In this document: in pieces, positions 23,855 to 24,107 of the stretch | Layout: each line of letters opens with the position of its first letter | How positions within the stretch are numbered: position 1 is the stretch's first letter | NCBI RefSeq assembly: GCF_003790525.1 | Contig: NZ_CP033635.1 | Direction: 5' to 3' (one strand) | Origin: Escherichia coli | Lineage (GTDB): Bacteria; Pseudomonadota; Gammaproteobacteria; Enterobacterales; Enterobacteriaceae | DNA length: 64,000 bases | Notes under the pieces: model-generated | The model's input: the letters and a program-made list of their open reading frames with translations, nothing else | Told to the model about the DNA's origin: nothing | Databases searched by the model: none | Position numbers and translations under genes: made by a program

Positions 23855-23914
23855 TAACAGAAAATAAACAGGCTGTGATGTGTCACGGTCTGTTTATCGA
23901 ATTAATTGCAGATA

Positions 23915-23946
23915 TAAAAAAACCAACCGTAATGGTTGGTTTTTTC
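23915..23946. terminator. Bidirectional terminator between yejO (+) and proL (-)
   Basis: AAAAAA-aaccaacc-gtaat-ggttggtt-TTTTT hairpin with flanking A and T runs. Confidence 0.6.
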
Positions 23947-23956
23947 TTGGGATTTT

Positions 23957-24033
23957 TGGTCGGCACGAGAGGATTTGAACCTCCGACCCCCGACACCCCA
24001 TGACGGTGCGCTACCAGGCTGCGCTACGTGCCG
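23957..24033 (-). tRNA. proL: tRNA-Pro (anticodon GGG)
   Basis: Reverse complement reads CGGCACGTAGCGCAGCCTGGTAGCGCACCGTCATGGGGTGTCGGGGGTCGGAGGTTCAAATCCTCTCGTGCCGACCA: 7-bp acceptor stem, GGTTCAAAT T-loop, encoded CCA end. Confidence 0.92.
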
Positions 24034-24107
24034 ACTCGTGGCTGCTAATACTACCGTTTTCCACACCGATTGCAAGTAAGATATTTTGCTAACTGATTTA
24101 TAATTAA

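Follow-up and report, generated by a model that had tools for sequence, protein, structure and literature searches.

Does the proL tRNA gene of this Escherichia coli chromosome stand as an intact, empty integration site, or does it hold a mobile element or the remains of one? The gene is a known island site, and SPI-12 of Salmonella adjoins it (PMC7143636). The first-pass annotation of the locus had described proL as unoccupied, flanked on one side by the yejO terminator and on the other by a short gap with a promoter-like hexamer pair in front of yejM, and as free of any island. We examined this description by comparing the locus with other Enterobacterales genomes and with complete E. coli genomes in which the site is filled. 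We conclude that the locus is very probably the native, unoccupied proL transcription unit of the E. coli chromosome.

The window, that is, the whole stretch of DNA analysed here, comprises 64 kb of E. coli chromosome extending from ompC to cirA. ARAGORN detected a single tRNA gene in these 64 kb, a tRNA-Pro with anticodon GGG at 23957-24033 on the minus strand, and the same gene was matched by the Rfam tRNA family RF00005 with 54.9 bits (E = 4e-9, gathering score 29). This is proL, whose 77 nt form a cloverleaf with anticodon GGG and end in an encoded CCA; the 77-nt sequence is identical across 118 species-level Enterobacterales genomes. The segment 23855-24107, to which the first-pass annotation had been attached, is exactly the gap between the yejO ORF (21263-23854, plus strand, stop at 23854) and the ORF of yejM (24108-25868, minus strand, stop codon at 24108-24110), which encodes an LPS-regulating enzyme. 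Between the yejM stop codon and the mature 5' end of proL we counted 74 nt (24034-24107), which agrees with the earlier figure of about 75 bp, and on the other side the yejO stop is only 102 bp away from the CCA end. The position of proL directly downstream of yejM is a conserved one: the linkage is found in nearly all of the 118 Enterobacterales genomes, and in most of them the YejM homologue ends 75-82 nt upstream of proL.

Gene names are the same in the RefSeq annotation of strain SC516, which is collinear with the window throughout, from ompC to cirA, without a large insertion. Identity to SC516 is 100% in window positions 1-3585 and 23400-24600 and amounts to 99.2%, 97.2% and 98.4% elsewhere (stretches within 3400-44600 and 44487-64000), a pattern suggestive of a mosaic in which segments have recombined relative to SC516. 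An L25 ribosomal-protein leader (RF03131, 46.9 bits) was also recognized at 27749-27774 on the minus strand, in front of rplY, where this known element is expected.

What an occupied proL site looks like can be seen in other E. coli strains. Among 5426 complete E. coli genomes, approximately 601 (~11%, about one in nine) are broken at the 3' end of the proL tRNA, and all four of the broken genomes that were inspected carry an integrase-bearing element between proL and yejO. RM13752 has an element of ~11 kb with its integrase next to proL (locus L002, 8991-20000), which further encodes an HTH regulator, an Icd-like protein, a RepA-type helicase, an SSB, a fusion of a ClpP-like protease with a major capsid protein, and a small terminase; by this gene content it looks like a phage satellite. 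In GPEC484-624 the site is filled by a degraded prophage of 16 kb with a tRNA-Pro copy on either side, and a 97-nt repeat is common to the two copies. N2250 has a lambdoid prophage at proL, and the 19-kb mobilisable element of 20KM2228 encodes integrases, a relaxase and an ABC-three-component system. Of the 5426 complete genomes, 448 have an integrase-side junction of the RM13752 type and 19 have one of the 20KM2228 type, so that the broken junctions, as judged from their sequences, are mostly of one element type with an RM13752-like integrase end; the remainder are estimated to be prophages or other elements.

These occupied loci share several features. Where the tRNA-proximal end of the element was seen, the integrase starts ~200 bp from the tRNA, and in the integrase-bearing genomes unrelated foreign sequence directly follows the CCA end of proL. 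On the yejO side, the junctions of occupied E. coli genomes repeat the tRNA 3' end over 15, 19 or 46 nt (query positions 1-115, 1-119 and 1-146), and RM13752 has a degenerate att copy, TGGTC-CACGAGAGAATTCAAAAC. Read from these junctions, the 3' part of proL, which corresponds to window positions 23957-24002 on the minus strand, is used for attachment by integrase-bearing elements of several families in other genomes. In the window this stretch is intact and present as a single copy.

In many species an element-type terminator (CCCGCA...TGCGGGTTTTTT) directly follows proL, as it does in integrase-bearing loci; among the carriers, within the first 110 nt after proL, are the loci L021, L035, L036, L051, L067, L088, L093, L094, L104, L112 and L126, as well as others. 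Homologues of the four query integrases were absent within 2.5 kb of the proL loci with this terminator. These loci are possibly the fossil ends of islands, or else they may hold islands with integrases of other families.

None of the features of an occupied site was found in the window. With a query of 201 bp placed symmetrically about the tRNA 3' end, the match is unbroken in the window, as it is in 4824 of the 5426 complete E. coli genomes, and the contiguous yejO-proL-yejM junction is likewise present in K-12 derivatives; the junction of the window is 100% identical to that of SC516. No integrase adjoins the tRNA 3' end, no direct repeat of that end lies at a far boundary, and the CCA is followed directly by the native terminator, which has been kept, instead of by foreign DNA. 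Searched against the window, the 3'-terminal 25 nt of the tRNA (up to 3 mismatches) and its 3'-terminal 15 nt (up to 2 mismatches) matched only the tRNA itself. Mismatch-only searches can miss repeats that bear indels; hence a gapped search was added, along with a positive control on occupied loci. The gapped search of the window (blastn-short with the tRNA 3' end) gave a best E value of 0.56, and the att sequence on the element side of the commonest proL occupant in E. coli is absent from the window. In the positive control the att repeats of the occupied loci were recovered when flanking context was included, and the degenerate RM13752 copy was detected only with that context, its score being at chance level without it. 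Because such a degenerate copy scores at chance when taken alone, a very decayed scar is excluded by the comparative evidence and not by the repeat search. Integrases were sought directly as well: tblastn of the four integrases from occupied proL sites against the window returned nothing better than E = 0.03, and none of the genes annotated over the collinear SC516 interval is an integrase or transposase, all being ordinary chromosomal genes. The earlier statements that the window has neither an integrase nor a repeat of the tRNA 3' end, and that proL is unoccupied, are thus borne out, as they are by the comparison with the flanks of proL in other E. coli genomes, where the inspected broken sites all carry integrase-bearing elements.

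The sequence that follows the tRNA was a part of the description that had to be reassigned. The hairpin next to the tRNA had been called the yejO terminator; it is instead the conserved terminator of proL, which convergent yejO shares. This ancestral intrinsic terminator lies at 23916-23946, between an A run and a T run, and starts 10 nt after the CCA end of proL. Its fold on the proL (minus) strand has a predicted dG of -16.1 kcal/mol (z -4.8). A hairpin and T run starting no more than 22 nt from the CCA end were found in 73 of 117 assessable Enterobacterales sequences, with stems that covary between them (CCAACC, CCAGCC, TCAGCC, GCAGCC, GGACAAC). A stable predicted hairpin, a U run and compensatory changes are therefore all present, as in an intrinsic terminator. 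The hairpin also occurs in genomes without yejO and therefore belongs to proL and not to yejO, and its position between an A run and a T run would allow it to serve convergent yejO too, a use in both directions that we infer. Directly after its stop, yejO has a further 15-bp hairpin (23864-23897, plus strand); the plus-strand fold of 23846-23960 has an overall dG of -40 kcal/mol (z -5.9). A consensus terminator scan of 23700-24300 missed the proL terminator, and we suspect that it did so because the A:T-extended stem uses up the T run.

Beyond this terminator, the statement that no island is present at proL stands for elements of the integrase type and has to be qualified in one respect, as yejO itself sits in a lineage-specific segment of 2854 bp (21054-23907, the yejO gene being on the plus strand) inserted between the proL terminator and narP; the 15-bp hairpin after the yejO stop lies inside it. 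The segment contains an intact yejO ORF of 863 aa and no IS. Two yejO-less Escherichia genomes from outside E. coli proper (L032 and L080, ~95% DNA identity) align to the window as far as 23908-23910 and rejoin it at 21053, the 2854 bp being replaced by ~25 bp, and in five Citrobacter species narP directly follows proL. At 0.471, the GC content of the segment is below the 0.517 of the window, and the 209 bp that precede yejO have 0.335. An IS5 element disrupts the K-12 copy of yejO close to its 5' end, and this copy bears a pseudogene annotation; the copy of AVS0465 is a truncated pseudogene, and in ~1040 E. coli genomes with an otherwise intact proL junction the 3' end of yejO is missing or different. 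In the literature library searched, no paper pairs yejO with proL.

These properties bear on the alternative that the site holds a decayed island, with the 2.85-kb yejO segment as the remnant of an old insertion whose integrase and att repeats have been lost. The absence of the segment from two other Escherichia lineages and from Citrobacter, its low GC content, its variability within E. coli and the fact that an autotransporter is typical island cargo are what such an origin would lead one to expect. However, the insertion point is 49 bp away from the tRNA, on the far side of the native terminator, whereas the integrase-borne elements that were seen all enter the tRNA 3' end. Flanking repeats were not found at the two boundaries of the segment, and it has neither an integrase nor a fragment of one. 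Its distance from the tRNA, its position beyond the terminator and its lack of repeats and of a recombinase make it unlike an integrase-mediated insertion into a tRNA gene, and ordinary intergenic gain of a gene, or loss in the other lineages, would account for it equally well. We therefore regard a decayed island as unlikely. A 7-nt likeness (AAGGTTG) between the narP-side boundary of the segment and an arm of the terminator was judged to be due to chance.

A second alternative accepts the empty site and questions its history. It proposes that proL was occupied in the recent past and that the element was excised precisely, restoring attB, so that "empty" would describe the present state only. 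Precise excision leaves no mark, and past occupancy is thus compatible with an empty junction. Elements at proL are common, the junction being broken in ~11% of complete E. coli genomes, and at least one related phage exists as a free 44.6-kb circle with a proL-like attP, which makes both gain and loss plausible. Positive evidence for such an event is nevertheless lacking at this locus, and the junction does not differ from that of SC516 at any position; a recent excision is in our estimate improbable. The circle in question is a 44.6-kb circular 'plasmid' of E. coli Z1323HEC0010 (NZ_CP148393.1; locus L127), which has at 6001-6092 a copy of the proL 3' half and terminator, 83% identical, and encodes a tail fibre, Lom, a DinI-like protein, an integrase, ParA and a yfdR-like protein. 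It probably represents either a lambdoid phage genome in free form or a phage-plasmid, with an attP that mimics proL.

The preferred reading of a native, unoccupied locus includes a promoter of its own for proL in the gap after yejM. The first-pass annotation had pointed to a promoter-like pair there, and both strings are indeed present on the minus strand, TTGCAA running from 24075 to 24070 and TATTAG from 24050 to 24045, 19 nt apart. The first of them is the -35 hexamer (24070-24075), but the true -10 hexamer is TAGTAT (24048-24053, read from 24053 to 24048), which lies 16 nt from TTGCAA and overlaps TATTAG, the latter being 3 nt out of register. Conservation was assessed in 119 Enterobacterales sequences, that is, the window and 118 other genomes. 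The pattern TTG[C/A]A[A/T], exactly 16 nt, TA[G/C/A][T/G]AT is kept in 117 of the 119; in these 117 the -35 position reads TTGCAA, TTGCAT or TTGAAA, and the spacer is invariant in length and variable in sequence. The three bases that would complete TATTAG read TAG in only 38 of 117 sequences. TTGCAA-16-TAGTAT is also the string listed for the spacer between yejM and proL by genomic SELEX with RpoD holoenzyme in K-12 (PMC3946193). TATTAG was accordingly rejected as the -10 element on its 19-nt distance from TTGCAA and its poor conservation, TAGTAT being both conserved and in the SELEX list. A consensus promoter scan of 23700-24300 reported no promoter, because the hexamer pair scores 8/12 and thus falls below the cut-off of 9. 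The hexamers, a spacing within 16-18 bp and the conservation expected of a sigma-70 promoter are found here, while the binding of RpoD holoenzyme is that reported for K-12 (PMC3946193).

On this comparative evidence proL is a single-gene unit with its own sigma-70 promoter (TTGCAA, 16 nt, TAGTAT) within the 74-nt gap, and transcription would start near 24041, ~8 nt before the mature 5' end, giving a leader of ~8 nt. That proL instead has no promoter and is made by read-through from yejLM, the TTGCAA/TAGTAT match being fortuitous, is very hard to credit. In its favour are the negative result of the scanner over 23700-24300, the modest agreement of the hexamers with the consensus (8 of 12 positions) and the hairpin without a U run at the yejM stop, which makes some read-through likely. 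Against it, 117 of 119 sequences retain both hexamers at a spacing of precisely 16 nt although the bases between them vary, and the promoter is listed by RpoD holoenzyme SELEX in K-12 (PMC3946193). In the native unit, then, RNA polymerase would initiate at the sigma-70 promoter after yejM, start near 24041, transcribe the tRNA-Pro(GGG) and stop at the intrinsic terminator of proL 10 nt past the CCA. No element is integrated in it, the tRNA still being joined to its ancestral terminator without an att repeat and without an integrase.

The hairpin at the yejM stop deserves separate description. At 24088-24116 (minus strand) the yejM stop codon lies within an inverted repeat, whose 11-bp arms enclose a 7-nt loop; the repeat is upstream of the proL -35 hexamer and ~61 nt upstream of the inferred proL start. 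Its RNA fold has a dG of -14.5 kcal/mol (z -3.95) and is not followed by a U run. RNAalifold found no consensus structure in a MAFFT alignment of the sequences that precede the -35 hexamer, because the arms of the repeat shift between genera, and a per-sequence repeat count against shuffled sequences was used in its place. By this count 65 of 111 distinct Enterobacterales sequences, vs 3 of 111 shuffles, have an inverted repeat with arms of at least 7 nt; from genus to genus the arms vary in sequence. The yejLM message is essential, and the repeat presumably resembles a Fis site. We offer only tentatively the proposal that the repeat is a functional element and not a by-product of coding, in which case it may be a hairpin with a role in defining or protecting the yejLM mRNA 3' end or a site for a dimeric protein that regulates the proL promoter.

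The arrangement in the window is that of K-12 and as such is ordinary and already known. The K-12 proL locus (yejM-proL-yejO) has the same gene order, an identical tRNA, the same terminator and the same empty junction, as well as the same promoter string, TTGCAA-16-TAGTAT (PMC3946193), and in the K-12 derivative JW5503 100% of a 1.2-kb query is covered at 98.6% identity. The two loci differ in yejO, which is an IS5-interrupted pseudogene in K-12 and an intact gene of 863 aa in the window. With SPI-12 of Salmonella enterica the window has in common the use of proL as the chromosomal anchor (PMC7143636). It differs from SPI-12 and from other proL islands in having no inserted element and in retaining the native terminator after the tRNA, whereas the representative of S. 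enterica subsp. arizonae has foreign sequence directly after the CCA end. The elements integrated at proL in E. coli, whether satellite-like of the RM13752 type, lambdoid prophages or a mobilisable element, use the same target stretch, 23957-24002. Unlike the window, which has none of these features, they bring an integrase, duplicate the tRNA end over 15 to 97 nt and part proL from yejO by 11 to >20 kb.

For the organism, the finding means that proL is free of prophages, satellites and islands in this strain, as it is in K-12 and in the majority of E. coli, and by itself this matters little. The comparison does supply a signature by which empty and occupied proL sites can be told apart, namely the native terminator directly after the CCA as opposed to foreign sequence. 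Its practical by-products are a census that puts broken proL junctions at ~11% of complete E. coli genomes and the correct register of the proL promoter.
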